This document shows, in pieces, positions 2,492 to 23,940 of a stretch of DNA of 32,000 nucleotides. Where the stretch lies: the NCBI GenBank assembly GCA_001029695.1, contig CP011211.1, positions 360,001-392,000 on the forward strand, in the 5' to 3' direction. The notes under the pieces were generated by a model. It had not been told where the DNA came from. It searched no databases and saw only the letters and a list, made by a program, of their open reading frames with translations. The stretch's first letter is position 1. Every line of letters begins with the position of its first letter. The stretch is from Candidatus Saccharimonadota bacterium. GTDB lineage: Bacteria; Patescibacteriota; Saccharimonadia; Saccharimonadales; Saccharimonadaceae. The position numbers were made by a program, and so were the translations under genes.

Positions 2492-5260
2492 TTACTTATG
2501 CTGAGTCCGACGATAAATCCTAGATGGCGCATATTCGACATCTACACCTCGAGGAGACAGGCGCGAACCATCCCAGCTTTCATCCTTAGCCTTACGTATT
2601 GAATTTGCAGTTTGAATATCTCGGATGTTATTTCTCCGGTGAGCCCTATTCGGCGATAGAGCCCTATCAAATGCATCCTCAATCGTATGGAGTCGCGAAC
2701 CGTTGTCAATCTTTACGCGTATTTCTCGATCACCTAGTTCCGGAAATGAATTTGGAAGGTAGTTAAGCTGCTGCTTAGTTACCCTGATATGCACTTGGTT
2801 TTTATTGTACTCTACTGGAACACTGACTGGCCGACTACTCTCATCTAAGAACGTAATGTAGTCAGGTGCAGTACTTTCAACTTCCTGCAAAATTACGTCA
2901 TTAAGTTCACCTTCAAGAATCATAGGATCAAGATATGGATCTAGGTCATCTAGCGTCAAAACCGTCTCTGGAACTAGCTCAGCTAGTTTATTGCGCGCAG
3001 CCTGAATCTTCTCGTGTACCGCAAGATTATAATGCGTCTTATGCTGCATGTAATGAAGATCTAGTATTTTCTGATGAAACCTCGAAAGTGTCGGTGAAAG
3101 ATTCTTCTTGTTTTTAAGAGCCTTAGAGAACACTACATCGACCATATAATCACGAAGTTGAGCGCCTGGCTCAACAGATACTCTATTTTTGTCATCAATA
3201 TACTGTCCGTCGAAATAGAGCGCATTCTTGGCTGTTATATTACCCCAAGTATCCATGCAATAGCCATTTATACTATAGGTGCAACGATGCGGTGCATATT
3301 TTTCTAGCTGTTCTCGCGTAACAGCAGTAGGAGAACTAACATAGCGACGCATAGTCAAGACTTCACCTTTGTACGTCTGAAGATTCCACGGAATACCCAC
3401 GAGTATGGGTGAGGTTCCAACCGTAGTAGCGCTCTGGAGATACCTACGGTCTCCACGGATATCACGGTAAGTGCCCTCGCCCGATCGAACGAAAACTTCA
3501 TCCACTCCTGATAAAATACAGGCAATGATCGCTTCATTCTCAGCATCAGTCTGCGGCATTCGCAAACTGTCAGGATCTATGCCTTGCTTTTTACAATTGC
3601 TCTCGTATAAATCTCTCGCACGTTTTAAGCTTGGCTCAATAATACCTTTTTGTTGAAGCTCCTGATTAGTTCTATCAGACTGCAGTGCCCACTTAAACAG
3701 CCTCATACCGAACATTAAATCGGAGCGGCTATCATTTGGAATCACCGTCCTCCACCCAGAGCCGTCCTGTTCTGTACTCATGATTCCTTGGGCCTGCTCA
3801 ACCGATGCAATTGCGATCATCTGCGCCTTGAGTGAGGGGAATTCCTCTTCGTACCGCGCAGACTCTACTATCATTCGAGCATAGTTAGGGTCAACAGAAT
3901 ATTGCTCAACCTCTCGCCCTATCTCAGTCAATTTATCATCCTCGTCATACACACCGATCCTTCTTAGGCGTATCATCGTGCGAGTCACTTCCTGAGATTC
4001 AGGATAATCGGAGAGGGGTAGCGTATCAAATGTTTCACCGATCACTGAAAGCTGTAGCTGACCAGAATCAAGCCTTGAACGAAGAATACCGGGAGTGTCA
4101 TACAGAGGAATTTGATCAAGTGGAGGTAACTTCGGATAGCCTTCCATCTTAGAGCCAAAAACAACCGTTCCATTACGCGTACGTGCCGTGCGCCCTTCAC
4201 GCTGACGATTTGTCGACTGAGGAGCTACTCGTTCAGTTAGGGTTTGAACTCCGTCTATAAGCATCATCGCGCGCTCATACCCAGGGTTAATCACAACATC
4301 TACGTCAAAAGTAACTCCCATCTCACCCACATTTGTACTGTGAATATGGCGAACTCCGGATGTCGTATCAAACACACGCTGCTGCGCAGCTCTCGACTGT
4401 TGACCATGTAGTAGCATCGCATTTACTTTCGTATCAATCTTTCGAACCGACTGACCCAATGAGCGAGTAATATTCTTACGACCCGGTAAAAAGATTACCG
4501 TATCTTCCTTTTTATGTTTCACGATATCAGCGATAAGCCCCTCTTTGTCCGGCTCTACATATGTAGTTTCAAATCTTGGTACATCGATCGATAAGATAGG
4601 TGCTGGCTCACCATGCACATTGCTGTACGTTTCTGCCATTTTTTCAGCATTCATTGTTGCGCTTGATATAACTAACTTCAGTCCTCTTTTCGCACACAAA
4701 CCAATTAGTATGTCGGCTTCAATCTCCCTCAGATGCACTTCATCTGGATTGAAGATAAAGCTATTAATCTCTTTACCTCCATGAATAACCATCTTTAAAG
4801 CAGCTCCGTACGTCGCCATCAGTATCTCATTCTCAGGATCCACTTCCGAATCAGTTGAGGTTGTATAGCCGACACGCTTATCGGCATACCCTTTCTGGTG
4901 CATCGCGTAGTCCATTTCTTGCCGGACACGATAGCATGCATTTCTAGCGAGTATTATACGAGGCTGCGGCTGAATAACCTTACTACCCAGCTCACTCTCC
5001 ATAAGAGCCTGTGCTCCAAGCGTCGTTTTACCAGATCCGGTATTACCGCTTAGGATTACGACCGGGTTGTCAGAAACCATATCGATAAATTCATCTCGCC
5101 TACTAGCCATAGAGACAGCTCGATTACCAAATCGGTAGTTTGTCGATGCGGGAACGATAATATCGACTCCATTATAGTTCACAATCTGATCAGGCCATGG
5201 TTTAGACCCATCAAAATTACTTAAATCATCTCCCGGTTGTACCCACGATTCTACTGACAC
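2492..5260 (-). CDS. DEAH/RHA-family helicase (HrpA/HrpB-like), 922 aa
   Basis: Motif I GNTGSGKTT, motif II DEVH, motif III SAT, motif V TNVGEMGVTFDV and motif VI QREGRTARTRNG are present. A long helical/OB-like C-terminal region is typical of DEAH/RHA proteins. The start is GTG with a weak SD. Confidence 0.85.
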   Translation of the reverse strand: MSVESWVQPGDDLSNFDGSKPWPDQIVNYNGVDIIVPASTNYRFGNRAVSMASRRDEFIDMVSDNPVVILSGNTGSGKTTLGAQALMESELGSKVIQPQPRIILARNACYRVRQEMDYAMHQKGYADKRVGYTTSTDSEVDPENEILMATYGAALKMVIHGGKEINSFIFNPDEVHLREIEADILIGLCAKRGLKLVISSATMNAEKMAETYSNVHGEPAPILSIDVPRFETTYVEPDKEGLIADIVKHKKEDTVIFLPGRKNITRSLGQSVRKIDTKVNAMLLHGQQSRAAQQRVFDTTSGVRHIHSTNVGEMGVTFDVDVVINPGYERAMMLIDGVQTLTERVAPQSTNRQREGRTARTRNGTVVFGSKMEGYPKLPPLDQIPLYDTPGILRSRLDSGQLQLSVIGETFDTLPLSDYPESQEVTRTMIRLRRIGVYDEDDKLTEIGREVEQYSVDPNYARMIVESARYEEEFPSLKAQMIAIASVEQAQGIMSTEQDGSGWRTVIPNDSRSDLMFGMRLFKWALQSDRTNQELQQKGIIEPSLKRARDLYESNCKKQGIDPDSLRMPQTDAENEAIIACILSGVDEVFVRSGEGTYRDIRGDRRYLQSATTVGTSPILVGIPWNLQTYKGEVLTMRRYVSSPTAVTREQLEKYAPHRCTYSINGYCMDTWGNITAKNALYFDGQYIDDKNRVSVEPGAQLRDYMVDVVFSKALKNKKNLSPTLSRFHQKILDLHYMQHKTHYNLAVHEKIQAARNKLAELVPETVLTLDDLDPYLDPMILEGELNDVILQEVESTAPDYITFLDESSRPVSVPVEYNKNQVHIRVTKQQLNYLPNSFPELGDREIRVKIDNGSRLHTIEDAFDRALSPNRAHRRNNIRDIQTANSIRKAKDESWDGSRLSPRGVDVEYAPSRIYRRTQHK

Positions 5261-11751: not shown

Positions 11752-11757
11752 ATGCTT

Positions 11758-11786
11758 ATTCTACAGACTCTGACGCTATCCTGCAA
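11758..11786 (-). promoter_or_regulatory. candidate sbcB promoter TTGCAG-17-TAGAAT, with the -10 only 6 nt from the ATG (leaderless-type)
   Basis: The minus strand reads TTGCAGgatagcgtcagagtctgTAGAATaagcatATG. There is no SD. Confidence 0.45.
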
Positions 11787-11795
11787 AAGGTACAG

Positions 11796-11822
11796 AAAAA
11801 ACCCACCTCAATCGGAGGTGGG
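11796..11822 (-). terminator. intrinsic terminator (minus strand)
   Basis: cccacctc (11802-11809) / aatcg loop / gaggtggg (11815-11822). On the minus strand the hairpin is followed by TTTTTT (11801-11796). Confidence 0.8.
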
Positions 11823-12111
11823 TAGTATAGAGTAACGAACAATAGAATGTAAGCGCGGGGCGAGGAGCTGCAGAGTAATCACTCTAGCTAAACTCCTCGC
11901 CACCGCAAGTGCAAATCGCAGCACCGACAGGCGCTCAAATGCGAACTCACGAGACGAAACTCGTCATCGTCTGCGGTGATCGTGCAAATTTCTATTTTCA
12001 CCACAGCTTACTAGCGACACGTCGCCTGTCGACAGTAAGCTGTGGTGGACTTTATTCAATTGTCATTACTTTACTACTTCACATGATACATTTTTGTCAT
12101 CATTGAAGTAT
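11796..12111 (-). ncRNA. candidate structured non-coding RNA of about 315 nt, class unassigned
   Basis: The locus is bounded by a consensus promoter (12118-12146) and the terminator at 11796-11822. It has no credible minus-strand ORF. It contains a 14-bp perfect hairpin (11999-12012 / 12034-12047), a 9-bp GC-rich hairpin (11859-11867 / 11893-11901) with a nested agagt/actct stem, and a 9-bp bulged hairpin (11949-11957 / 11961-11970). Confidence 0.5.
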
Positions 12112-12117
12112 GAATGC

Positions 12118-12146
12118 ATTATAGCAGATATCTAGATATATGTCAA
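12118..12146 (-). promoter_or_regulatory. consensus sigma70-type promoter TTGACA-17-TATAAT
   Basis: The minus strand reads TTGACAtatatctagatatctgcTATAAT, with -35 at 12146..12141 and -10 at 12123..12118. The predicted TSS is near 12111. Confidence 0.7.
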
Positions 12147-12160
12147 TAGTATTTTATAAA

Positions 12161-13651
12161 CTAATAAAGCTGCCTGTAGCCTGCAAACTCATACGAAGTC
12201 GTCGTCAAATAGCTCCCAAACGGAGTGTCAACAGGGGGTAGTAACGTTCGTTGTGTATGGAAACTAATATTGACACCTTGTCCGCCCATAGCACCAAACT
12301 TCGTACCCCCGTAGCAGTCAACTGTCGCATAATAAGCAAAGAAGCTAAGTCCCGGGAAATTATTACCACCACCAGACCCCCCACATTCCAATGCGGTATA
12401 CTGCGTCGCTTTCATCCAGCTTGGATCAAAGTCCGGTAAGTACGCAGATGCTTTTGCATCCGCTGGAAGCAGGCATGCGGATGCAGTCTCATCGATTCTA
12501 TTTGAGCAACTTGAATTATTCGAGTAAAAACTAATCATATACGCAGATAGGCCTGCTGAATTTTTTAAAAAAGCGTCACCTCCGCGAAAAGTAGCAGCCT
12601 GCTGTGCGATAAACTTTCCATTTAATACAATCGTCGGCCCATTCCCAGTCGCTGTATCGGCAACTCCAAACAGCGATCGCTCGTTGAGCGTAATATTACC
12701 TTCGACATAAACATCTCCAGCAAAAAGAACCTTACATCCAGATATATCTGTTGCTGATATACTACCCGTTATCCACGTATTTGCGGGCACCGTCCTCGTT
12801 CCTCCATTACATGACTGAGTGATCGATGCGCCCGTTACCTTTGCTGCGCTGTTCATTCGACCAACAAACTCCTGTTTATTAAAGTATGGCTGCGCGTAAC
12901 TTGGCGCTGCACATCCAAGCTGAAGCCCGGCAATCTTTGAGGATGCTGGCTGATCTGTGGCGCAAACATTCCCATAAACACCAACACCCAATGCGGACAC
13001 ATTTATAGGTGGAGCACTGGCGTTGCAAGCCATAGGCCAATCAGCAGCAACTCCACAAGATATGTTGGCCGCTTGCAGCAATCGAACAGGCTCAGCGGCG
13101 GAGCCAATCGATGAACTCTGTGCTAATGTTATACCGCCTTTTACATAAATATTATCACCATACAACTTAGACTGAGAGCCAATAGAAAGCCCTCCAGAAC
13201 CAGCAAATAACGATATTCCCGACATTGGCCTCAATACAGGGCGTAAGGTTACTTCAATCTTTTTCTCATTAACAAGACTGTCGTCTCCACTATCTCTGTA
13301 CACTCTACCAGTACTAGTGATAACTTTTTGTCCATTAGGCTTTGTGGTGACATCTGTGACGTAGGTTGCCCGCCCCTCAGAAGATGAGACTCGATCATAA
13401 AAAACTTGAGGGCTTGCCAAAGGAAAGCCAGTAAATCCAGGATTTTCTGCAAGTTTGTATTTCGTTGCGCCCACCCCCGCTTCCGCAGCAGAAATCGCAT
13501 TCTCAACATAAGTTACACGTTTAGAGTTCATGTATTTTGACCCTGCGACTGTCGCGATCGTAAAAGCGATAGCAGTGAGAACGAAAACAACTATCGTGAC
13601 ATAGATCAGCAAGTAGCCTTTTTCGTTTTTATGAAATGATTTAGCCATCAA
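12161..13651 (-). CDS. large pilus-associated protein: PilX_N-like hydrophobic N-terminus plus a cysteine-rich C-terminal module of about 345 aa
   Basis: The N-terminus KGYLLIYVTIVVFVLTAIAFTIATVAG...NAISAAEAGV resembles the PilX N-terminal domain (no Glu+5). The gene overlaps the upstream minor pilin by 4 nt (ATGA). It has 10 Cys, all in the C-terminal module. Confidence 0.7.
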   Translation of the reverse strand: MMAKSFHKNEKGYLLIYVTIVVFVLTAIAFTIATVAGSKYMNSKRVTYVENAISAAEAGVGATKYKLAENPGFTGFPLASPQVFYDRVSSSEGRATYVTDVTTKPNGQKVITSTGRVYRDSGDDSLVNEKKIEVTLRPVLRPMSGISLFAGSGGLSIGSQSKLYGDNIYVKGGITLAQSSSIGSAAEPVRLLQAANISCGVAADWPMACNASAPPINVSALGVGVYGNVCATDQPASSKIAGLQLGCAAPSYAQPYFNKQEFVGRMNSAAKVTGASITQSCNGGTRTVPANTWITGSISATDISGCKVLFAGDVYVEGNITLNERSLFGVADTATGNGPTIVLNGKFIAQQAATFRGGDAFLKNSAGLSAYMISFYSNNSSCSNRIDETASACLLPADAKASAYLPDFDPSWMKATQYTALECGGSGGGNNFPGLSFFAYYATVDCYGGTKFGAMGGQGVNISFHTQRTLLPPVDTPFGSYLTTTSYEFAGYRQLY

Positions 13652-14058
13652 AAGACGTCCTTTGGCTCTACATAAGCCATCACGACAACCTGCTTTCTAT
13701 TCGAACCAAGAGGATAATCTATTACTACTTGTAACTGCCTCGCAGACGGCACCGCTGTCGGAACCGTGACGGTGACTTTCCCGGTCGTACCTGCTGGCAT
13801 ATCGGTAATCGCGCTAGTGAAGTCTATCGGTGCAGCAGCACTCGTCAACACCGTAAAATCCCCATTTCTTAATAGTTCAATCTGCTGTCGAGCTGCTCGA
13901 TTTGCCGTATCAACATAAAAAGAGTCTCTTTGCGCATACTGGATGTACTGCACGGCCGAAACAATAGAGACAATCGTGAGGCTAAAAACGACAACCGATA
14001 CAATAATCTCTATTGTCGTAAAGCCTGATTGTCGTCGTTGGCTAAAAGTAGCTGCCAT
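13648..14058 (-). CDS. type IV minor pilin / pseudopilin (PilV/GspI-like)
   Basis: Prepilin N-terminal cleavage/methylation motif QSG|FTTIEIIVSVVVFSL with Glu at +5. 136 aa. Confidence 0.8.
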   Translation of the reverse strand: MAATFSQRRQSGFTTIEIIVSVVVFSLTIVSIVSAVQYIQYAQRDSFYVDTANRAARQQIELLRNGDFTVLTSAAAPIDFTSAITDMPAGTTGKVTVTVPTAVPSARQLQVVIDYPLGSNRKQVVVMAYVEPKDVF

Positions 14059-14075
14059 AAGATTTGTTTATCCCG

Positions 14076-14501
14076 TTACGGCCTTATGACTTCATTTTCG
14101 GTACTTGCGCCACCCCAGTATGGACCAGGAATAGTGATCGTATAGGAAGTACATCGTGGGCTCGTAGGACTGCCACACCCAGATGGAGTGGGCGCGTACT
14201 GAATGCTCTGACTATTTTTTGTGAGGTTAAAAGCATCACCTAGCTGACTACCTACGCCACCGATATACGCCACGACAGCGGCCTTATTCTCAGGATAATT
14301 ATTCTTATCTGTAAAATACTCACCTAGCTTCAGCTTTACTTGCTGCGCAGTAGACACTACATCCGATTTAGCTGCACGTTTTTGGTATCCCGAGTATGAT
14401 ACAGTGCCGATTGCAGCCAAAATACCGATAATCGTAATTACAGTTATAAGTTCAATGATCGTAAATCCATAAGTGGTTCGTTTTACTTGAGTCGTCATCA
14501 C
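14076..14501 (-). CDS. type IV pilin (likely the major subunit of this cluster)
   Basis: Prepilin motif TYG|FTIIELITVITIIGILAAIG with Glu at +5. 141 aa with two C-terminal Cys (CGSPTSPRC), typical of a disulfide-bonded D-region. GAGGG SD lies upstream. Confidence 0.85.
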   Translation of the reverse strand: MMTTQVKRTTYGFTIIELITVITIIGILAAIGTVSYSGYQKRAAKSDVVSTAQQVKLKLGEYFTDKNNYPENKAAVVAYIGGVGSQLGDAFNLTKNSQSIQYAPTPSGCGSPTSPRCTSYTITIPGPYWGGASTENEVIRP

Positions 14502-14628
14502 TGTTTTAACCCTCTAATCATAAGCGCTTTATTTATAGATCATCATACCATTAACTGTAGTACGAGTAAACCACACAGGCCCCCTCCCCTGTACTAGTGA
14601 AGCTGTTTATGCTTAAATAGACTGCACT

Positions 14629-16359
14629 ATGACGCAATCGCGCAATCATTCGCTACCACGCAAAACGAGCGATGGATTTACCATCGTAGAGATGATTGTT
14701 GCAGTGACCGTTTCGACGTTCATGCTTGTTGCGATCGTTGGCTTTATCGTTACCCTGATCCAGCAATACGGAGTAAGCTCGCAGCGAAACACGTTGACAA
14801 CGAATCTTCAAGCTGCAACCTCACGTATAAATGACGACATACGAAAATCCGTCGCCGTCCTACCGACAAACCAAACAGATGACCCTAACGGCCCATCTCC
14901 TACCACACGATGGTCCTCGAAAGTAGACCAGCTTGTTCTCGGACAAAAACCAACATTAGCAGACGGCACTCTCATCGACACAGAAGCGCTCGATAGCGTT
15001 GTTTATTATCTCAAGGAAAGATCCCTCTACCGCCGCGTCGTGGCTGCAAGCACGACTCCACCAAATAGTATTTCCACTATTACGTGTGGCACAACGGCTA
15101 ACGGCTGCCCCGACGATGTCAGGGTTGTAGAAAATGTCGACAGCATAGCCTTCACCTACAGAAATAATGCAAATGCCGTTATCTCCTATAGTCCAAACGC
15201 CGTAACGAATGTTTCCTTTGCTATAAAACTCACCACCGAACAGAGCGGGCAAACCATAGAATCAAGTGGAAAATCTAGCATGACACTTCGACAGCAAACG
15301 CTCACCTACAATCGTACGCCGCTAAGCGTAGGGTCTGGAGGACTGCTCGTCAATAAAATGAACATGAATGTTCAGCCCAACGCCGACCTTACTGTCAAAG
15401 GGAGGATAAACTGGGGATCTGCTGGAGCAGCAGCGTATATTTATACACTGGGTACAGCGTCACAGCCAATCCGAAACCTTGCCGTTGCAGGTATCGCCTG
15501 TGGAACCGGCAGTTCATTCCCAACTCAATGCGCATCCCCCACAATCATTTCTGGTGCAGCATCAAAGATCACTACTCAAAACCTTTGCGCACCCGCACAC
15601 ACCGGTTCGCTTATCAATCCAACAATAGCGACCTCCACCAACACAGCACCGACAAGAACGTGTGACTCAGCTGCCTACGACCTTCCAGCATTCAATAGAG
15701 AGGCATTCTACAATAAGATGAACCAGCCGGCCGTCAATGGTACGCGTGTGTGCGGCGCAGCTCAGACATGCTCGCTTGAAGCAAATACGATTTATAACGG
15801 TGATATCGGTGGTGGGAGTGGCTTTCCTTCTGTCCCAAATCGTGCAAAATGGGAGATCAAAGGTGATATTTACGTAAGAGGTAACTTCGGAAATGCCGGA
15901 CTTGGTGCAAGCTCAGTCGCATCGTTCGAAGAATATAAAGTCGCCGACGGAATCACCAAGCGACCAGTTGTTGTGATCGAAAAGCAATTCTGGATTATCC
16001 TTGGCTCTGTCGTCCCAAATGACAAGGGCATCACTCCTATATTTATCAGTTACTATACACAGTCAAATCCCAGCTGTTCAAGCGATCCTAGCTGCAGCAC
16101 GCTAACACCAGCACAAGCCGCGCAAGAAGCCAACAACACAGACCCAAACAACCACGCGGTACGCTATGGGACCACATCGGGTGATACATACGGCAACTTC
16201 AGCGGATCACTCTACTCGTATTTTGGAAGAGTGAGTATCAATATCTGGTTTGGCGGCACATTCACCGGAACTGTCGCCGGTCAATCAGTGCTCCTCCAAG
16301 GCAGTAACAATACGACGTCCGCAACCTTCAATATGACAAACGAACCGTGGCCAAATTAG
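14629..16359 (+). CDS. large minor-pilin-like protein: PilW/GspJ-like N-terminal region plus a cysteine-rich C-terminal module of about 340 aa
   Basis: Prepilin motif SDG|FTIVEMIVAVTV with Glu at +5. VVYYLKERSLYRRV...SIAFTY resembles PilW/GspJ. The C-terminal part is collinear with the C-terminal module of ORF 12161..13651. 10 Cys. Confidence 0.75.
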   Translation: MTQSRNHSLPRKTSDGFTIVEMIVAVTVSTFMLVAIVGFIVTLIQQYGVSSQRNTLTTNLQAATSRINDDIRKSVAVLPTNQTDDPNGPSPTTRWSSKVDQLVLGQKPTLADGTLIDTEALDSVVYYLKERSLYRRVVAASTTPPNSISTITCGTTANGCPDDVRVVENVDSIAFTYRNNANAVISYSPNAVTNVSFAIKLTTEQSGQTIESSGKSSMTLRQQTLTYNRTPLSVGSGGLLVNKMNMNVQPNADLTVKGRINWGSAGAAAYIYTLGTASQPIRNLAVAGIACGTGSSFPTQCASPTIISGAASKITTQNLCAPAHTGSLINPTIATSTNTAPTRTCDSAAYDLPAFNREAFYNKMNQPAVNGTRVCGAAQTCSLEANTIYNGDIGGGSGFPSVPNRAKWEIKGDIYVRGNFGNAGLGASSVASFEEYKVADGITKRPVVVIEKQFWIILGSVVPNDKGITPIFISYYTQSNPSCSSDPSCSTLTPAQAAQEANNTDPNNHAVRYGTTSGDTYGNFSGSLYSYFGRVSINIWFGGTFTGTVAGQSVLLQGSNNTTSATFNMTNEPWPN

Positions 16360-16365
16360 GCGGTA

Positions 16366-17703
<1,338 letters not shown>

Positions 17704-17725
17704 GACATTTTATCAATTAGTTATT

Positions 17726-18907
17726 CTAGTGAATATAATTGTATGATTTTGCTTGGCCAGCTGAGATAGTACGGCCGGATATAATATTGAATCCGCCACC
17801 GCCACCGCCATAGTTCATTTCACTGATACGTATGTCACCGTTTGAAAGCACTTCTTCGACAATCGCAACGTGTCCATAGCCACCACCGTTTTGCATAACT
17901 GCACCAACCGCTGGCGTATTGTTGACAGCGAAGCCTGCAGCACGTGCGTACATTGCCCAAGTTGCCGCGTTACCCCAGAAACTGCCCACAGGACGTCCAA
18001 GTTGCGCACGACGCTCGTATGCGTACCATGTACAGTTACCGAACGCATAGGCATTTCCTGAAGAAACGTTTGCCATACCTCGGCTAATTGTATACCCACC
18101 AGAGTTATTCGCACCGTAGCTCGTACCTGTGCTTGCACGAGCAGTACTTGGAGCCTGATAGCCTGGGCGCTGGTCTTCCGGAAGCACGCCTGCTGGAATA
18201 ACGATACGACGATCCTTGGTGAGTCCATCGATTTCAAGATCATTAAATGAGACAATGCGATCTTTATCTGCCTTGAACGTACTTGCGATCTTTTCTGGCG
18301 TATCACCATCCTTGATCGTATACACTACACCATCAACAGGTGGAACGGTAAGTACTTTGTTCGCTTCTATCGCATCTGATGAGAGATTGTTGGCCCACTT
18401 TAGTGTCTCAGGAGAAATACTATGAGCAGCAGCGATTGACTGGGCAGTGTCACCTGCTTTTGCCGTATAGCTAGTAATATCTCGACTAGCTGCAGTTGCT
18501 TGGATGATTTGAGGCTTACTAATAGCAGACTCGCTCGTCTGAGAAAGTTCTGTTTTAGCTGCAAGAGAAACAGACAAGTTAGCAACGTTAGCTGCAACTG
18601 GCATATTCGTTTGTTCTGCGAAGTTCGCTGCAATGTCAGTTGCAACAACTTCGTCTACAGAAGGCCTATCAACATTGACACCTGTATTAGATGACTGGGC
18701 AACACTTGCTACTTGAGCAGGCTGAGGTTGGCGATAGCCAATAGCTACAATAGATATAATAAGGACAAAAATACCTGAATATGCAGCAAATGTTGCTAGT
18801 TTAGGTTTCGAAAAAGCCTTCTTATGACGCTTGTTCTTGCCTAAAACTTGTTGTTTTAGCTGTGCGTTTGATGCAAATGCATCGGGCGCAATTGGTTGGT
18901 TACGAAT
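17726..18907 (-). CDS. membrane-anchored peptidoglycan hydrolase: N-terminal TM, two LysM domains and a CHAP amidase/peptidase domain. Proposed non-AUG start.
   Basis: LysM motifs are YTAKAGDTAQSIAAAHSISPETLKWANNL and YTIKDGDTPEKIASTFKADKDRIVSFNDL. The CHAP motif is FGNCTWYAYERR...GHVAIVEEV. The frame is open to 18943 and encodes KKAFSKPKLATFAAYSGIFVLIISIVAIGY upstream of the first ATG (18604). AGGAG lies 7 nt before an in-frame ATT at 18907. Confidence 0.75.
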   Translation of the reverse strand: MRNQPIAPDAFASNAQLKQQVLGKNKRHKKAFSKPKLATFAAYSGIFVLIISIVAIGYRQPQPAQVASVAQSSNTGVNVDRPSVDEVVATDIAANFAEQTNMPVAANVANLSVSLAAKTELSQTSESAISKPQIIQATAASRDITSYTAKAGDTAQSIAAAHSISPETLKWANNLSSDAIEANKVLTVPPVDGVVYTIKDGDTPEKIASTFKADKDRIVSFNDLEIDGLTKDRRIVIPAGVLPEDQRPGYQAPSTARASTGTSYGANNSGGYTISRGMANVSSGNAYAFGNCTWYAYERRAQLGRPVGSFWGNAATWAMYARAAGFAVNNTPAVGAVMQNGGGYGHVAIVEEVLSNGDIRISEMNYGGGGGGFNIISGRTISAGQAKSYNYIH

Positions 18908-19143
18908 TATCGTTCTCCTGCTGCCTATATTACTATAGGAGCACTACCTTACTCTGTCTTTCTTCTCGCAAATAGAACGGGGTACGTGTCGACCGAATTC
19001 ATTAATTAATATTTTTTGAAAATGTTCATTTCGGTACCCGTGCGACATTTGTCGGTAGGCTCATTTATGTTTCACACTTCCCGCTCGCATATGCTTCCAG
19101 ACTGGCTGCATTAGTAGATGAAATCACAAATGTGCTGTAACTT

Positions 19144-19172
19144 ATTCTATATGACCTTGCATAAAATGTCAA
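19144..19172 (-). promoter_or_regulatory. candidate promoter TTGACA-17-TAGAAT for the LysM-CHAP transcript
   Basis: The minus strand reads TTGACAttttatgcaaggtcataTAGAAT. A second TTGACA sits at 19201..19196. The predicted TSS near 19137 gives a leader of about 230 nt. Confidence 0.5.
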
Positions 19173-19204
19173 TATATTTTTTAAGATAGTATTTTTGTCA
19201 ACTA

Positions 19205-20545
19205 CTACGGCAGCATACACTTGGTATGGCAATACTGACTCACATTTTTGTCGTGCTCAGCGTTCGTGCGAGCAAAGTACGTCTTCTCATCATCACCACT
19301 CACGAAAAACAGGTAATCACCTAGTGCAGGATTTGCAGTCGCCCGTAGGGCACTCAATCCTGGTGCTGAGATAGGGCCTGGCGGCAAGCCTTTGTATTTA
19401 CGAGTATTGTAGGGTGATTCGAGGTTGAAATCGCGCGCAACACCTTGCTTATCTGCGGCATAATGGTATGTAACATCAGAGCCAAGGTTCATACCCTGCT
19501 TGAGGCGCGAATAGAACACCTGAGCGACCTGTGGCTGGTCTGGCACTAAAACCTCTCTCTGTACGATAGAAGCCAGTGTAATACCCTTGTAAAGCGTGAG
19601 GCCTTGCTTCTTAAAGCCTTCTTTTAAGTTATTCTTCTCCACCTGCCTCTGCAGCTCATCAAGCGCCCTTGTGATAATATCCTCAACCGTCGCAGACGAT
19701 GAGAATCGATAGGTTTCACCGTAGATATACCCTTCAAGGTCAGCTGACGCAGGCTTATCGGCTAAAACCGGATGAGTGTACGTCTTTTTTAAGGCAGCAG
19801 CAATCTCAGCCTCAGGGTAGCCAGCTCGCTTCAATACCGTCGTCACATCAACTTTTTTTGCCTCAGGCGTCGCCGTAGTATCAGTCAGTGTCGCACCTGG
19901 ATAAAATGTCAGGCTAAACTCATCAACAACACCCTTCACGAGATGATCAACAATCCGCGATACTGATTCGGTTGCGGCAAGATTATATGAGCCCGCTTTT
20001 AGAGAGCTGTTAGTTCCTGATAGCTGCGTGTAGAGAATAAACGCATTTTTATCACGGATAAGACCCTTCTCCTTTAGGAACGTCGCTATCGTCGTTGGTG
20101 TATCTCCCGATTCGATAATCACCCGTGTCCGCTGCGCCGCCTGATCACTCGATACGGGCTTTAACTGCTCTTGATACCATAGATACCCAGCCCCTAAAGC
20201 GATCGCAGCTACAGCAATAAGCCCAATTGCCCATAGCAATAACCGACCCCAAATAGAACGCTTTTTCTTATGAGCGTGCGCGGGGTCGTCCTTGAGATCA
20301 ATATCTTTCAAATCAACTGAAGGCGTTACTGCTACTGTCTGAGAAAGTGCATGGTCAGCTATGAGTGCCTGCGGCTTTGGTGTTGGAAGCTCGTGATCGT
20401 AGCGATATTCTGGCTGTGAAGCCACAGGGACTGACTGGACAGGAGGGGGAGTAGCCCGCCTAAATCCATCCACCTGCACTGGAGGTAGCGACGTACCATT
20501 GACGGGCTGAGTCGATGGCTTCTGAGCATCTTCATCAGGCCGCAT
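19205..20545 (-). CDS. mltG: endolytic murein transglycosylase MltG (YceG-like)
   Basis: A Pro-rich N-terminus and a single TM (LLLWAIGLIAVAAIALGAGYLWY) precede the YceG domain, which has ASIVQREV and YNTRKYKGLPPGPISAPG. ATG 20545 follows a GGAGA SD, so the 20602 start in the track is unlikely. Confidence 0.85.
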   Translation of the reverse strand: MRPDEDAQKPSTQPVNGTSLPPVQVDGFRRATPPPVQSVPVASQPEYRYDHELPTPKPQALIADHALSQTVAVTPSVDLKDIDLKDDPAHAHKKKRSIWGRLLLWAIGLIAVAAIALGAGYLWYQEQLKPVSSDQAAQRTRVIIESGDTPTTIATFLKEKGLIRDKNAFILYTQLSGTNSSLKAGSYNLAATESVSRIVDHLVKGVVDEFSLTFYPGATLTDTTATPEAKKVDVTTVLKRAGYPEAEIAAALKKTYTHPVLADKPASADLEGYIYGETYRFSSSATVEDIITRALDELQRQVEKNNLKEGFKKQGLTLYKGITLASIVQREVLVPDQPQVAQVFYSRLKQGMNLGSDVTYHYAADKQGVARDFNLESPYNTRKYKGLPPGPISAPGLSALRATANPALGDYLFFVSGDDEKTYFARTNAEHDKNVSQYCHTKCMLP

Positions 20546-20966
20546 GATGTATCTCCAAATAGTCCTGCAGAATGAGCGTTGCCGCCCGTGCATCAATATC
20601 ACCTTTTGTGTACGGTCGTTTATCTGCCTTTAGCTGCTGTTCCGCGATGACACTCGTTAGCGATTCATCCTGGAATACGACAGGTGCCATATCTTTTAGT
20701 TGCTGAGCAAACTGAAGCACATATGTCGTCTGAGCTGTTGGCTCTCCTGACTGATTACGAGGATAGCCGACAACAATTGTGTCGATACTATCGAGTGTCA
20801 CGATCTTCGCAATCGCTGTAAGCTCACTGCCGTCAACCTCAATCGTTTCAAGCGCTACAGGAATTCGGATTGCGGTATCTGCCACCGCAACACCAATTCT
20901 TCGCTCGCCAACGTCAAGCGATAATAACTGCTTACTTACCCGACTCATTCTTGATCTTGAACTCAA
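20535..20966 (-). CDS. ruvX: YqgF/RuvX putative pre-16S rRNA nuclease (Holliday junction resolvase-like)
   Basis: LLSLDVGERRIGVAVAD is the RNase H-fold N-terminal motif, and the segment ...DESLTSVIAE... is also present. 143 aa. Confidence 0.85.
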   Translation of the reverse strand: MSSRSRMSRVSKQLLSLDVGERRIGVAVADTAIRIPVALETIEVDGSELTAIAKIVTLDSIDTIVVGYPRNQSGEPTAQTTYVLQFAQQLKDMAPVVFQDESLTSVIAEQQLKADKRPYTKGDIDARAATLILQDYLEIHHAA

Positions 20967-22593
20967 TAGTTATCTTCTTTACATCGTTCGGTACGGTCTG
21001 TACCCAGAATGGCCAAAACTTTGTATTTGCGTCGTTAATGCCATCAATCTCTTTTAGCTGACTCTGCACTTCACCGAATCGCTTACCCTTTACCAGCTCT
21101 TTTATCTTTGCGTCATCAATCTTTGGGCCGACCTGTCCTGTCGTCTCAAGTACCACAGACGAAGCTGGTGATGCTTTGTAACCGGTAAACTTCACCTTAT
21201 CTAATCCATTATCATAAATCTGCTGCTCGTCAGTCTTGAGCTGCTCTTTGAGTGTTTGATCAAGAAACTTCGATAGTTGGTCTTTTGGCACGCCTTGCAT
21301 TGTATATGTCACTTCGCTTGTCAGCTTAGCCTTCGCTTCTTTTAGCTCACCGCCGACCGCTGGTGTTGACTGTGGTGATACATCACCTGCAGTGAAGCTC
21401 TCATCAATAACAATCGTACTCACACCAAACTTTGCAACCAACTTCTTCTTGATCTCATCGTTGCTCTGCGCCTTTAGCTGTGCAGTTGCTTTTTGTACAT
21501 CTGCAGCTGTTACGATCTTGATAGTTCGCTTACTACCACCAGCCATTGCACTGCCAGTCGCGGAAATACCTTCGACCGTAGAATCATATCCACGTGCAGA
21601 AAGGTTGCATTCTTCTCCCACCGCAGTAGCTTGGACTTTTACATCAACCGTGCCAGGTGACACTCCAAAACCAGAACCATTCCAGACTGGACTTGCGCCA
21701 GGTACTGAGACTTGCGCCTGAGTGGTGAACGTACAGTTACCATTGCTAAAGCCTGTACCGTATGGAACACTCACTGCACCTGGTGCTGATCGAGTAAGTG
21801 TCATCGTACCAGTCGCTTTTTCACCCACATCTTCTGTACCAGTTGCGTCAAACTCGACACTTGATGCCACTTTCTCTTGCTGAGAGGCGGCGCGTACGGT
21901 TGCTCGCTCCGCATTTGTCTCGAGCGTTGGTCCGATAGCAATCGGCTGTTTAATTGCAACCGAGCTTGTTCGAGCATCTATTACTACCGTTGCTTTTGGT
22001 GCGAACCAAATCGCCCATATAAGAAACCCGACAAGTAGAACGCCAAGACCGCCAAAAATAATTGCCTTTTTGCGGAAACTGCCAAAGTTTGGCACCTTGA
22101 TGCCACTTTTAACTCGTGGCTTCGCTGGCGACGCACCCTTTAGGGGCGGGGTGGCTTTTACCGGAGCATCATCTTCGATATTGATACCCGAGATTGCACT
22201 AGCGGCCAATGCTTCTTTTGCATCTACTCGCGTATCTGCAGTCCTCGCTAGCTCACCAACGGGTAGTTGTTCACCATCAATGACATCATCACCATCATCG
22301 ATTTCAAGCGCTGGAATCTCAGCCAATTCTGGCTTACTCTGCAAGTTCTTTGCTACAGGGATTTTCGCAGCACTCGCAAGGCTAGAGAGTGCTTGGTTAT
22401 TTGTAATAATAACAAGTCGCTTGTCGTTTAGTTCACCCGTACGGGCGAGAAGGCGTAAGTTCACTGCACTCTGAAGAACGCCAATTCGCTTTGGCGGGAC
22501 GAGAGCAACGACTTTTTCTTTCGTAGCCTTTACTTTACCGATAATTGCGGTAATGTCGTCTTCAACATCAATATAGATAACGTCTTTTTGCAT
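20932..22593 (-). CDS. hypothetical bitopic membrane protein, 553 aa, in an operon with ftsA
   Basis: It has a cytoplasmic domain of about 90 aa, an acidic/Pro-rich linker, a TM near aa 177-197 (AIIFGGLGVLLVGFLIWAIWF) and a beta-rich extracytoplasmic region of about 355 aa. The start is 8 nt after the ftsA stop and the 3' end overlaps ruvX. Confidence 0.6.
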   Translation of the reverse strand: MQKDVIYIDVEDDITAIIGKVKATKEKVVALVPPKRIGVLQSAVNLRLLARTGELNDKRLVIITNNQALSSLASAAKIPVAKNLQSKPELAEIPALEIDDGDDVIDGEQLPVGELARTADTRVDAKEALAASAISGINIEDDAPVKATPPLKGASPAKPRVKSGIKVPNFGSFRKKAIIFGGLGVLLVGFLIWAIWFAPKATVVIDARTSSVAIKQPIAIGPTLETNAERATVRAASQQEKVASSVEFDATGTEDVGEKATGTMTLTRSAPGAVSVPYGTGFSNGNCTFTTQAQVSVPGASPVWNGSGFGVSPGTVDVKVQATAVGEECNLSARGYDSTVEGISATGSAMAGGSKRTIKIVTAADVQKATAQLKAQSNDEIKKKLVAKFGVSTIVIDESFTAGDVSPQSTPAVGGELKEAKAKLTSEVTYTMQGVPKDQLSKFLDQTLKEQLKTDEQQIYDNGLDKVKFTGYKASPASSVVLETTGQVGPKIDDAKIKELVKGKRFGEVQSQLKEIDGINDANTKFWPFWVQTVPNDVKKITIEFKIKNESGK

Positions 22594-22601
22594 ATCTCTT
22601 T

Positions 22602-23867
22602 TTATATTCGGAGCAACCGATTAAATTTATCTTTGATCGTATCGCTTTCGCTTGCTCCTACTATTGTATCATAGCCGACACGGAGCAATCCCATCGCAGT
22701 AATAAACGTATGATCATTTACTGTCCCTGTACCGTCTGTAATGCCGACCACTTCTTCAGGCTGGATGTGATGAATTGTTGGTTTTTTCGTAAAAGGTAAG
22801 TCCTTGTGCCATTCTTGCGTATTAAGTGCTTCGACAAGCTGCCCGAGGCTTGCTCCACCACCACAAAGAAGAATACGATTTGGGAGATGGTCGACAGAAT
22901 CAAACTCACTCAACGCAAGCTCGACACCCGATAACCAAACCTCAAGTGTCTTGTCGATCGCCGATTCAGCCTGTTTTTTCACTGATGGCTTAATCTTCTC
23001 GCTGTCGAGATTCACCTTTAGCTTTTCCGCATCACTATACGTGAGATCCATCTCACTCGCTATCGTCCGGGTAAAACTTCGTCCACCGATACCGAACATC
23101 TTCGTTCCCTCTACGCCACCGTCATTAACGACAGCGATATCAGTCGTTCCACCACCAACATCAGCTAAAATAGCGGTAAAATTGCTGCTTGAGTCAGTTC
23201 CAAGTACACTACGACTCACCGCGAACGGCTCGGCCGCCACCGCTACAAGATCAAGCGCAAGATCATCCGCGACACGCTCAAGCGCCCCAATATGCACCAT
23301 CGGTGCAAATGCCGTGTAGATCTGTACAGCCACATCCTTGCCTTGAAATCCAATAGGATTGCTGACTTTGTAGCCATCAATATGAATACTAACCAGTGCA
23401 CTATTCACAAGCTTCACTTCAACTTCCTCGTTACCCGTCTCAAGTGCAATCTGCTTTTGCGCTTTACCCTGCGCCCGCTCTTGTACCTTTTCAATGATAA
23501 ATTCCATTTCGGCAGTATCAAGTGGTCGATCGGGCTGAGGGCGACGGTAACGAATAGTGTTCGTCACACCCTTTACGAGCTCCCCTGCAATCCCAATCAC
23601 CACGCGCTTCGCCTGCAGCCCAGCCTGGTCTTCAGCTTCTGATAGTGCCTCTTCGCAGTTACGAACAACTCCGGAAATATCCGCGATCGCACCACTATGC
23701 ATATCACTCACTTCCTGACGCGCACGGCCAACTCCGACAATCTCCAAAGAGTCGTCATTCACCTTGGCGATAAGTGCTTTGACGAATTCTGTTCCGATAT
23801 CAAGACCGACGATGTAGTCGTTTTCGGCGTGTTGTTTGCGAGCTGCTCGTATTTTTTCAAAAACCAT
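22602..23867 (-). CDS. ftsA: cell division protein FtsA (actin-like ATPase)
   Basis: Phosphate-binding motifs DIGTEFVKA and ADVGGGTTDIAV, adenosine motif LCGGGASL, and a C-terminal amphipathic tail KDKFNRLLRI. ATG 23867 (MVFEKIRAAR) is preferred over 23912. Confidence 0.85.
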   Translation of the reverse strand: MVFEKIRAARKQHAENDYIVGLDIGTEFVKALIAKVNDDSLEIVGVGRARQEVSDMHSGAIADISGVVRNCEEALSEAEDQAGLQAKRVVIGIAGELVKGVTNTIRYRRPQPDRPLDTAEMEFIIEKVQERAQGKAQKQIALETGNEEVEVKLVNSALVSIHIDGYKVSNPIGFQGKDVAVQIYTAFAPMVHIGALERVADDLALDLVAVAAEPFAVSRSVLGTDSSSNFTAILADVGGGTTDIAVVNDGGVEGTKMFGIGGRSFTRTIASEMDLTYSDAEKLKVNLDSEKIKPSVKKQAESAIDKTLEVWLSGVELALSEFDSVDHLPNRILLCGGGASLGQLVEALNTQEWHKDLPFTKKPTIHHIQPEEVVGITDGTGTVNDHTFITAMGLLRVGYDTIVGASESDTIKDKFNRLLRI

Positions 23868-23911
23868 AGATTGTATTATTATATACCAAAGGTGCTTATG
23901 GTAGCAAAACA

Positions 23912-23940
23912 TTGCGTTTTTATATGTTTTATGCTATAAT
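23912..23940 (+). promoter_or_regulatory. candidate promoter TTGCGT-17-TATAAT, with the -10 7 nt from ATG 23948 (leaderless-type)
   Basis: TTGCGTttttatatgttttatgcTATAATaaataatATG. The TTG that the ORF track uses as a start is the -35 hexamer. Confidence 0.45.

Follow-up and report, generated by a model that had tools for sequence, protein, structure and literature searches.

Minor pilins carrying a large beta-solenoid have been published for Thermus (PMC6561018) and for cyanobacteria (10.64898/2026.02.12.705559). In Thermus thermophilus, the GspK-like tip pilin ComZ (6QVI, Salleh et al. 2019) has a solenoid of ~380 aa and binds the neighbouring PilA2; this bacterium possesses an outer membrane and a PilQ secretin channel (PMC6561018). 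In the cyanobacterial PilX proteins (PilX1-3 and the HpsA-like PilX-EPS), a triangular beta-solenoid resembling ice-binding proteins is inserted ahead of the last strand; they occur with a dedicated PilV partner, and it has been suggested that they stand in for PilY1, either as tip plug or as adhesin (10.64898/2026.02.12.705559). Nanosynbacter lyticus TM7x, which belongs to the same phylum as the organism described here, encodes PilX1 and PilX2, two large PilX-type minor pilins without PilD signal and with an accessory domain, and PilX2 is required for efficient host binding and competition (PMC11623550). Their genes sit with pilA, pilV and pilW, and one of the pilin loci is devoid of machinery genes (PMC11623550).

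A pilin cassette between obg and sbcB

The window analysed here, 32,000 nucleotides of contig CP011211.1, is 100% identical to contig MGCT01000005.1 of assembly GCA_001790535.1. It contains, between obg and sbcB, a set of pilin genes belonging to an environmental Saccharibacterium. A first-pass annotation of this DNA had raised a Saccharibacterium as a possible source; Obg has its top matches in MAGs of Saccharibacteria, and a lysM-TM7 RNA was found. Saccharibacteria are not known to have an outer membrane.

Two large ORFs, here called A and B, and two small genes described as pilA-like and pilV-like were all confirmed with the coordinates given in Table 1, and the 127 bp attributed to the control region were recomputed from the ORF ends. 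The term 'giant' was overstated for proteins of this size. The 4-nt overlap reported at the start of A exists for the TTG codon only: A likely starts at the ATG, as gene callers have it, which leaves a 1-nt overlap (TGATG). The divergent transcription of B is correct here but is not the general layout, since relatives have B running in the same direction as the other pilin genes; its orientation is a local peculiarity. The intergenic region includes a promoter-like site (14570-14542, minus strand) with a 9/12 match and a TG extension.

Table 1. Features of the pilin cassette (positions within the window)
Feature	Coordinates	Strand	Description and basis
Protein A, 496 aa (TTG start) or 495 aa (ATG at 13648)	12161..13651	-	ComZ/PilX/GspK-like, without Glu5, beta-solenoid
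A pilin module, aa 1 to about 142	13226..13651	-	Gly-12 leader end, alpha1 helix 13-69, 4-stranded sheet; DSSP on AF2 model
A beta-solenoid module, aa about 143-470	12242..13225	-	Modelled runs of 3-4-residue strands; homology to B
A-type C-terminal tail, aa about 471-496, ending YEFAGYRQLY	12164..12241	-	Predicted single long strand 483-495 (AF2)
Small minor pilin, 136 aa, GFTTIE	13648..14058	-	GspI/PilV/ComGE-like
Small prepilin, 141 aa, GFTIIE motif	14076..14501	-	First gene of minus-strand operon; GspG/GspH/PilA-like
Divergent intergenic region, 127 bp, 141-aa pilin gene / gene B	14502..14628		ORF coordinates
Protein B, 576 aa	14629..16359	+	Class-III-signal minor pilin, GspJ/PilW-fold N-domain, C-terminal solenoid paralogue
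B GspJ/PilW-like pilin domain, aa 1 to about 224	14629..15300	+	Putative C153-C160 pair; Foldseek
B beta-solenoid module, aa about 225-576	15301..16356	+	BLASTP/profile homology to A, AF2 model, Cys columns

The 141-aa prepilin matches N_methyl above the cutoff (24.3 bits) and, over its N-terminal part only, the NCBIfam families PpdD, GspG, PilA and GspH. Orthologues with 40-93% identity are present in all related cassettes, and the protein is either a major-type pilin or a FimU/GspH-type adapter. The 136-aa pilin displays weak matches to N_methyl, ComGE, PilV and GspI, and its gene is kept in related cassettes directly upstream of a solenoid pilin. In agreement with the first-pass annotation, no PilB, PilC or PilD family was found in the scanned ORFs (all but a few of those of at least 120 aa); the window also contains no PilM, PilN or PilO gene, and no PilY1-like beta-propeller was detected in it.

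The shared module and its two pilin scaffolds

A and B share a homologous module of ~340 aa. BLASTP with composition adjustment aligns the two proteins at E=1e-15, with 25% identity over about 400 columns, and the alignment comprises all the matching blocks initially quoted; the real pair scores 65.9 bits, and the best of 500 shuffles of B's module reached 23.9. Profiles built from one type retrieve the other, the A-only profile finding B at E=2.9e-35 (filters off) and the B-only profile finding A at E=1.2e-60. The GSGGL motif, which does not vary among 19 relatives, indeed lies at aa 151 of A and aa 235 of B. The two proteins are collinear, as had been noticed, yet the similarity begins earlier than this motif (near A 101-134 and B 185-225) and therefore takes in the last strands of the pilin sheet.

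The module was rightly described as Cys-rich, and its tentative description as beta-helical agrees with the models. Each protein contains exactly 10 Cys; the module holds 10/10 of those of A and 8/10 of those of B. Column occupancy and co-occurrence, measured across 135 relatives, reveal that Cys columns pair locally (phi 0.94 for columns 230/247), which suggests putative disulfides C199-C209, C230-C247, C281-C306, C382-C392 and C423-C449 in A, and C291-C301, C320-C345, C375-C381 and C483-C489 in the module of B. Collinear Cys, Gly and Pro columns stay invariant throughout 137 proteins. The GAST content of ~40% is close to that of exposed TM7x pilins.

Pfam, NCBIfam and PDB sequence profiles did not recognise the module. 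It can nevertheless no longer be called unrecognised, because Foldseek matches its fold, and A in its entire architecture, to the solved structure of ComZ, 6QVI (E=5e-8); judging from the models, it would represent no new kind of domain. With the AF2 model of A (pLDDT 83, pTM 0.75), the only significant PDB matches are three chains of ComZ (E=5e-8 to 1e-6, prob 1.0); as the TM-scores are low (0.22), this likeness rests on the E-value of the 3Di alignment. At the sequence level, PDB profile searches with 19 and 137 sequences gave no link to ComZ and match pilin N-termini only. For B (pLDDT 77.8), the C-terminal module matches both ComZ (E=5e-3, prob 0.3) and ice-binding proteins weakly.

The proposal that the module is carried by two different minor-pilin scaffolds is supported by their N-terminal parts. 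B opens with a class-III signal (SDG/FTIVEM, Glu+5 present), scores 19.1 bits against N_methyl (cutoff 21.2) and matches GspJ and, weakly, the cyanobacterial pseudopilins HpsC and HpsB across its N-terminus only; in Foldseek this domain retrieves EpsJ, XcpW and GspJ (prob 1.0, TMt 0.5-0.59), that is, a GspJ/PilW fold. A is GspK/PilX/ComZ-like: it lacks Glu5, and its Gly precedes a hydrophobic helix; PilX_N is matched below threshold, in 12/115 relatives. The module is a C-terminal fusion in B, as had been stated; in A-type proteins, the solenoid is followed by a conserved tail of 25-30 aa (YQQLY). Such a Y-Q-Q-L-Y-like ending is found in most A-type proteins and is absent from B-type ones, and the HMM ends at about 340 for A-type versus about 310 for B-type. 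By analogy with ComZ, the tail is probably the last strand of the pilin sheet, and the solenoid of A is probably an insertion ahead of it.

ComZ resembles A in several other respects: its size (about 500 aa), an N-terminal hydrophobic helix, the lack of Glu5 and of any canonical PilD substrate motif in predictions, a large beta-solenoid (~340-380 aa) joined to a GspK-like pilin sheet, and the proximity of its gene to small GspI/J-like minor pilins. Disulfides are unmentioned in the text of the ComZ paper (PMC6561018), whereas five putative pairs can be drawn in each of A and B. The cyanobacterial PilX proteins, compared by their description, are capping minor pilins, as A is presumed to be, and like A have no Glu5 (10.64898/2026.02.12.705559).

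Relatives and exchange between close strains

A-type and B-type proteins constitute two stable architectures, with 103 and 34 cluster representatives, respectively. The GFTxxE motif is missing in 100/103 of the former and present in 26/34 of the latter. In a neighbour-joining tree, the B modules form a nearly monophyletic group, and the two solenoids are old paralogues stemming from an ancient duplication. Whole cassettes adjacent to obg (L003, L008, L009, L024 and L095) associate a B-type and an A-type gene with 2-3 small prepilins; L008 contains three solenoid genes, and L084 just an A-type module gene, beside a 226-aa ORF resembling the N-domain of B. Co-occurrence with T4P machinery is observed for the A-type relative P0011, located inside a complete operon in the order PilB, PilC, pilin (137), 110, 220, A-type (463), PilM, 181, PilO.

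The obg-sbcB cassette is hypervariable, apparently a new point. L006 is 99.5% identical to the window at the DNA level up to the obg stop codon, and no similarity exists beyond. In L001, B is 99.6% identical while A is only 40% identical, with breakpoints inside gene A, only the body of which has been swapped. L001 has also lost the control region, together with the 5′ end of B and that of the gene for the 141-aa pilin; the pilin set is thus dispensable in at least one strain. Since close strains swap these genes, their products are plausible candidates for host- or ligand-recognition parts.

A putative tip complex and its possible ligand

The four genes fit the H/G-I-J-K scheme of type IV filaments, the 141-aa protein corresponding to G/H, the 136-aa protein to I/PilV, B to J/PilW and A to K/PilX/ComZ, and this gene set and the predicted folds agree with the I-J-K tip trimer of GspI-GspJ-GspK and PilV-PilW-PilX (PMC8179133). 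The tip complex advanced in the first-pass annotation remains the best reading, the tip location itself being presumed. We consider it rather probable that the locus encodes the core minor-pilin (tip and priming) set of a T4P, with solenoids presenting a binding surface whose likeliest ligand is a host-cell component. A bundle of N-terminal helices, from the I-like, J-like and K-like subunits, would form at the membrane and prime the polymerisation; these subunits would then reach the distal tip, placing two solenoids on the filament there. The solenoids may cap the filament, PilY1 being not seen, and would present a variable binding surface, most likely to a component of the host-cell surface. 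Recombination exchanges the cassette between near-identical strains, the behaviour one would expect of an exposed specificity determinant. The function could be that of an adhesin, as first suggested for host recognition, of a DNA receptor or of a tip plug.

The solenoid pilins might serve natural transformation, the tip binding extracellular DNA instead of a host surface, a role put forward for ComZ. ComZ, the sole significant structural match, binds DNA, the T4P operon of P0011 adjoins recA-recX with comEC nearby, and the essential T4P-1 locus of TM7x adjoins recA, for which its authors suggest possible DNA uptake (PMC11623550). However, the window cassette lies apart from any recA or com genes, the module pI is near neutral or acidic (A-type median 5.7), and wholesale allele replacement in near-identical strains is hard to square with a chemically invariant ligand. 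Sequence similarity to ComZ is also lacking, so that no positions in A or B can be matched to its two DNA-binding lysines. We regard a DNA receptor as unlikely. A purely structural role, in which the solenoids take the place of PilY1 as a bulky plug at the tip or as a scaffold for priming, without specific ligand, seems improbable as well. Variability would then reflect escape from phages binding the pilus tip, or relaxed constraint. A tip plug has been proposed for cyanobacterial PilX solenoids (10.64898/2026.02.12.705559), the window yielded no PilY1-like propeller, and the conserved module positions look like fold core (Gly, Cys, Pro, GDVYITGN and PTIVVNG blocks); still, neither the need for a solenoid on two subunits nor the three solenoid genes of L008 would be explained, and a plug is compatible with an adhesin role.

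Right-handed beta-helices are typical of polysaccharide lyases and hydrolases, and the modules could be such enzymes, displayed on the pilus or secreted via the pilus system and degrading polymers of the host envelope. Foldseek matches to PL6 alginate lyase, xylogalacturonan hydrolase and pectate lyase are nonetheless weak (probabilities 0.01-0.04), no Pfam or NCBIfam enzyme family appears in the window proteins or 115 relatives, and the invariant and near-invariant columns (Gly, Cys, Pro, Ala, Asn) include none of the acidic or basic residues expected at a catalytic site, making an enzyme very improbable. As for the resemblance of A and B being a compositional artefact of G/N/S/T-rich sequence, the default HMMER bias filter did reject B in the A-only profile search, but the composition-adjusted BLASTP, the shuffles, the one-type profiles and the collinear Cys, Gly and Pro columns refute it, and we give it practically no credence.

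The preferred reading, a tip complex with two solenoids, follows the logic of a pilin carrier plus grafted effector module known from modular pilins such as S. sanguinis PilB/PilC, CofB and TcpB (PMC8179133). In T2SS, the extra domain is borne by GspK alone and is alpha-helical (PMC8179133). In TM7x, the accessory domain is a beta-jelly roll in PilX1 and a 7-bladed beta-propeller in PilX2, not a solenoid as in A, and the description of PilW1 and PilW2 gives them variable loops and no extra domain, unlike B (PMC11623550). In Thermus the solenoid is reported for ComZ only, the solved GspJ-like TTHA1219 (~200 residues) being too short to hold one, and in cyanobacteria it is described for PilX and not for PilW/GspJ-like subunits (10.64898/2026.02.12.705559); here the J-like B has a paralogous copy too. 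Among the modular pilins compared, PilB, PilC, CofB/TcpB, ComZ and GspK each have their own kind of module (PMC8179133), whereas here two different core minor pilins of one set share a paralogous one. Unlike in known systems, the J-like and K-like subunits both bear a ~340-aa, presumably disulfide-rich beta-solenoid, and a GspJ-like subunit carrying an anciently duplicated solenoid copy is apparently new.

The two pilins and their common module

The four ORFs proposed in the first-pass annotation were confirmed in place and length (see the table), with one amendment: for protein A, a GspK/PilX/ComZ-like pilin, an ATG one codon downstream is the likelier start, being the choice of the gene callers, and gives 495 aa and a TGATG overlap. 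The guess that the DNA comes from a Saccharibacterium was also right, because the Obg of the window is 65-81% identical to those of 80 genomes, nearly all of which carry a Saccharibacteria label, and because Rfam detects a lysM-TM7 RNA (107.8 bits for a gathering score of 61.5). This RNA is located upstream of a LysM-CHAP peptidoglycan hydrolase gene and constitutes an independent TM7/Saccharibacteria marker. The window DNA is 100% identical to MGCT01000005.1 (assembly GCA_001790535.1, on whose accession the literature search returned no papers). Housekeeping flanks comprise uvrA, sbcB, obg, the LysM-CHAP hydrolase gene, mltG/yceG, ruvX, an ftsA/pilM-like gene and alaS, and, as the annotation had it, no pilB, pilC or pilD was found among the window ORFs scanned. 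The 436-aa FtsA/PilM_2-like gene is followed directly downstream by a 553-aa ORF for which Pfam gives no match, and the two may act in either cell division or pilus assembly. A 922-aa protein, with weak P-loop, DEAD and STAND-type matches at its N-terminus, is kept in three related contigs (L088-L090).

Features of the window discussed in the text
Feature	Position	Strand	Remark
922-aa protein gene	2492-5260	-	weak N-terminal matches
Gap between A and sbcB	11752-12160		sbcB start 11751
Terminator-like stem	11823-11801		before sbcB
Hairpin	11999-12047		21-nt arms
Sigma-70 consensus promoter	12146-12118	-	TTGACA-17-TATAAT + TG extension
A	12161-13651	-	496 aa
pilV-like gene	13648-14058	-	136 aa
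pilA-like gene	14076-14501	-	141 aa
Inverted repeat	14452-14470 / 14672-14690		19 nt, 84% complementary
B	14629-16359	+	576 aa
LysM-CHAP hydrolase gene	17726-18604
lysM-TM7 RNA	18915-19060	-	Rfam
553-aa ORF	20932-22593	-	no Pfam match
FtsA/PilM_2-like gene	22602-23912	-	436 aa

A and protein B, a GspJ/PilW-like pilin, share a ~340-aa Cys-rich module, predicted to be a beta-solenoid. Their pairwise comparison by BLASTP is significant (E=1e-15, 25% identity over ~400 columns, A 101-460 and B 185-554), and the matching blocks quoted in the first-pass annotation all fall within this alignment. The similarity is real; only its onset had to be moved, from the GSGGL motif (A aa 151, B aa 235) to 20-50 residues ahead of it. 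The cysteine counts were exact, with ten in each protein, of which all ten in A and eight in B are inside the module. A compositional artefact is ruled out by shuffles, since 500 shuffled B modules scored at most 23.9 bits versus 65.9 observed, and by profiles built from one type only: that of relatives of A (A-type) alone retrieved the window B at E=2.9e-35, and that of 18 strict relatives of B (B-type) retrieved the window A, over residues 134-467, at E=1.2e-60. A recent conversion of one gene by the other was likewise rejected: the two are 25% identical, and B modules (34/36) group separately, essentially as a single clade, in a neighbour-joining tree, which makes the duplication an old one.

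An exhaustive profile search over 1.84 billion cluster representatives (50% identity) brought the family to 387 representatives at E<=1e-3, 146 of them at E<=1e-30, versus only 3 proteins in a word-indexed search with the module profile; with protein A alone as query, no relative was found in GTDB species representatives. Two stable architectures are seen among 137 complete relatives. In the A-type (103 representatives) the module starts at about residue 140, GFTxxE is absent in 100/103, and a conserved tail ends in ...YQQLY; in the B-type (34 representatives) the module starts at about 230-290 and is terminal, the tail being missing, and GFTxxE is present in 26/34.

Pilin classes and predicted folds

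B begins with ...SDG/FTIVEM and has a helix at 19-73 in its model. With its leader Gly, hydrophobic alpha1N and Glu+5, it qualifies as a type IV pilin with a class III signal, judging from sequence and model. N_methyl gives B 19.1 bits, just under the 21.2 cutoff, and the 141-aa pilin 24.3 bits, above it. AlphaFold2 models of A and B were built from 19-20-sequence alignments. In that of B (pLDDT 77.8, pTM 0.62), the N-terminal ~220 residues match EpsJ (2RET, 3CFI), XcpW (3NJE, 5BW0) and GspJ (3CI0) by Foldseek, with E from 7e-4 to 9e-3, prob 1.0, TMt 0.5-0.59 and whole targets covered. The predicted structure thus contains a GspJ/PilW fold, an alpha1 helix and two beta-sheets in ~150-200 aa. 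On sequence, the gspJ family model TIGR01711 reaches B at E=0.016 only, with 15 bits for a cutoff of 64.85 and over residues 16-76. The remainder of B gives weak Foldseek matches to ComZ, the tip pilin of Thermus thermophilus (E=5e-3), and to ice-binding-type solenoids (FfIBP, LeIBP and Shewanella IBP, E=0.02-0.1, prob 0.15-0.33). The solenoid is terminal in B because the A-type tail is missing.

A has Gly12, a helix at 13-69 and, at position +5, a Tyr, the exception of the GspK/PilX type; Glu5 is missing in A as in 100/103 of its A-type relatives. PilX_N is undetected in A and sub-threshold in 12/115 relatives (best E=1.1e-5), and an AAEAG motif occurs in A and, as scanned, in 35/103 A-type relatives. 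In the model of A (pLDDT 83, pTM 0.75), the secondary structure shows serial strands of 3-4 residues; the conserved tail behind the solenoid, found in the A-type only, is predicted as a single 13-residue strand, an indirect hint that the solenoid of A may be inserted ahead of the last strand of the pilin sheet, as it is in ComZ. Among PDB structures, only three chains of 6QVI (ComZ) match this model at E<=1e-3 (E=5e-8 to 1e-6, prob 1.0, ~600 aligned columns, with TM-scores of only 0.22). A would therefore follow the ComZ pattern, a pilin fold with a large triangular beta-solenoid, the TM-scores being low. The likeness to ComZ lies in the predicted fold and a sequence-profile link was not found: with hmmsearch profiles of 19 and 137 sequences against all PDB chain sequences (E<=10), ComZ was absent among the matches, which were limited to pilin N-termini.

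Pfam and NCBIfam name no domain over the module in A, B or 115 relatives, and their matches in A and B concern the prepilin N-termini only. DUF7305 (PF23981, gathering threshold 27 bits), on which the literature search returned no papers, has no match in A or B; it appears sub-threshold in 7/115 relatives (best E=4.9e-5), one of which (P0004) matches it with residues 293-358, at 22.4 bits, over the module part GDVY...PTIVxNG. One relative matches pAdhesive_15, an 'ice-binding-like adhesive domain', at E=5e-4. The non-pilin tip adhesin PilY1/PilC, with its C-terminal beta-propeller (IPR008707), has no Pfam/NCBIfam match and the models contain no propeller; unlike PilY1/PilC, A and B both have pilin N-termini. 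A link with tail-spikes was dropped, viral predicted structures giving nothing significant by Foldseek. The first-pass annotation had taken the module for an unrecognised kind of domain. This was not borne out: the predicted fold of A matches that of ComZ, and solenoid-bearing capping pilins are already published, so that the module does not represent a novel type of domain.

Concerning its cysteines, the pair 199/209 is universal among relatives, 230/247 co-occur (phi 0.94), and 281/306 and 382/392 are frequent. Pairing between near neighbours is possible for all ten Cys of A and all ten of B, and we infer disulfides in the module.

Variation of the obg-sbcB cassette

Module genes are found beside obg in only 4/80 Saccharibacteria obg loci (L008, L009, L024 and L084), which include the three most similar Obg among loci extending past this gene. 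Most other loci have obg adjoining sbcB and not more than one pilin gene nearby. The complete cassettes recovered combine B-type and A-type genes with 2-3 small prepilins, one B and two A genes being present in L008. One of the four (L009, SEAL01000020.1), a MAG contig labelled 'Chloroflexi bacterium', has an Obg 77% identical to that of the window and the same kind of pilin cassette (B-small-small-A); it probably comes from Saccharibacteria and was mis-binned. In the complete cassettes, B runs in the direction of the small pilin genes, or else at least in that of obg. The divergent orientation described in the window does exist, there and in L001, L004 and L094, but it is a local inversion and not the general arrangement. 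An invertible element was rejected, no inverted repeats having been found to flank B. The only inverted repeat nearby is coding sequence, for GFTIIE and GFTIVE in the two divergent pilin genes; it may serve as a substrate for the inversion or the deletion observed in relatives.

The cassette varies strongly, even between otherwise very close strains. L006 is 99.5% identical to the window from 20655 to 16367 (the obg stop) and has no blastn similarity beyond; its B is 29% identical to the window B. L005, L006 and L007 have identical Obg and DNA 96-99.5% identical over 16367-20655, nucleotide similarity ending exactly at the obg stop codon, and carry a different, co-directional cassette (137, 130, 588-590 and 502-512 aa). 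In L001, the flanks are 97% and B 99.6% identical, identity is 81% over the small pilins and none over the body of gene A (13467-12173; 40% for the protein), and it returns to 96% at the last codons of A. This locus also has an additional 200-aa prepilin gene ahead of sbcB, inserted at ~11790. Moreover, its segment 4661-4760 replaces ~510 bp of the window (14390-14900) by ~100 bp, a loss of ~0.4 kb that is possibly an assembly artefact. The lost stretch comprises the entire 127-bp control region and the 5' end of each of the two genes beside it, B and that of the 141-aa pilin; both genes are therefore probably devoid of starts and promoters.

The gap between A and sbcB contains no ORF of at least 60 aa on the minus strand. 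It carries a perfect sigma-70 consensus promoter followed by a hairpin and then a terminator-like stem, and may represent a leader, a small RNA or what is left of the promoter of a pilin gene since lost. In L025, L031, L042, L053 and L076, a single prepilin gene without solenoid module (173, 352, 353, 394 and 491 aa, GFTI(I/V/L)E motifs) stands beside sbcB in the obg-sbcB-uvrA region; L025 and L042 have it immediately past sbcB, the other three within the obg-sbcB interval. Pilin genes that differ in their extra domains seem to have landed in this region repeatedly.

Possible roles of the solenoid pilins and known systems

An A-type relative of 463 aa (P0011) is encoded in an operon ordered PilB, PilC, 137-aa pilin, 110 aa, 220 aa, A-type, PilM, 181 aa, PilO, with recA-recX to one side and comEC nearby. 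In this complete type IV pilus operon, the A-type protein thus stands where PilX would. Since the 220-aa J-position protein there has no solenoid, the solenoid on PilX is the common state, and its additional presence on PilW, seen in the window, the derived one. A, B and the two small pilins would form an H/G-I-J-K core minor-pilin set, the kind that primes and caps type IV filaments. Of the earlier proposal of a tip complex or adhesin, the former is the best reading: a tip/priming complex whose J-like and K-like subunits would each display one solenoid. The solenoids may bind a variable ligand, most plausibly a component of the host surface; this fits because alleles are replaced between near-identical strains, because of the precedent of PilX2 in TM7x, and because of the 'modular pilin' concept (PMC8179133).

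Other roles deserve consideration. A DNA receptor is suggested by the only significant PDB match of A being ComZ, which binds DNA besides the neighbouring pilin PilA2 (PMC6561018); charge and pI of the modules do not discriminate between DNA binding and other roles, and we find such a function rather improbable here. We would give an equally small chance to a pure tip plug, as proposed for cyanobacterial PilX (10.64898/2026.02.12.705559). Neither is fully incompatible with an adhesin. An enzymatic beta-helix of the pectate-lyase kind is unlikely, Foldseek giving prob 0.01-0.04 and no enzyme family appearing among 115 relatives. To extend the tip-complex reading, we tentatively suggest a two-headed receptor, whose paralogous J-like and K-like solenoids would lie packed against each other and form a composite binding surface, swapped between strains by recombination of the obg-sbcB cassette. 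This is a possibility we would not call probable; if true, that surface would be a major factor in deciding the bacterial hosts open to attachment by the episymbiont.

How Saccharibacteria and other Patescibacteria recognize their bacterial hosts is largely unknown, and for TM7x the best candidate so far is a minor pilin of the PilX type that bears an accessory domain; efficient host binding there requires PilX2, which carries a beta-propeller (PMC11623550). In the literature searched, we found no GspJ/PilW-type minor pilin with a solenoid, no core minor-pilin set with two paralogous solenoids, and no account of this module family in Saccharibacteria or of obg-sbcB cassette exchange. The present candidates for host-range determinants are concrete, and offer a natural test of tip solenoids as specificity modules versus plugs only. 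ComZ itself is a GspK-like tip pilin whose triangular beta-solenoid of ~380 residues separates the last strand of the pilin sheet from the penultimate one, FfIBP being the closest relative of this solenoid (PMC6561018). Our results would leave the general view of type IV pilus tips as it is. To the solenoid design of ComZ/PilX they add a sizeable unannotated family in environmental Saccharibacteria, the duplication of that design onto a GspJ/PilW-like subunit, and gene replacement between strains otherwise 97-99.5% identical.
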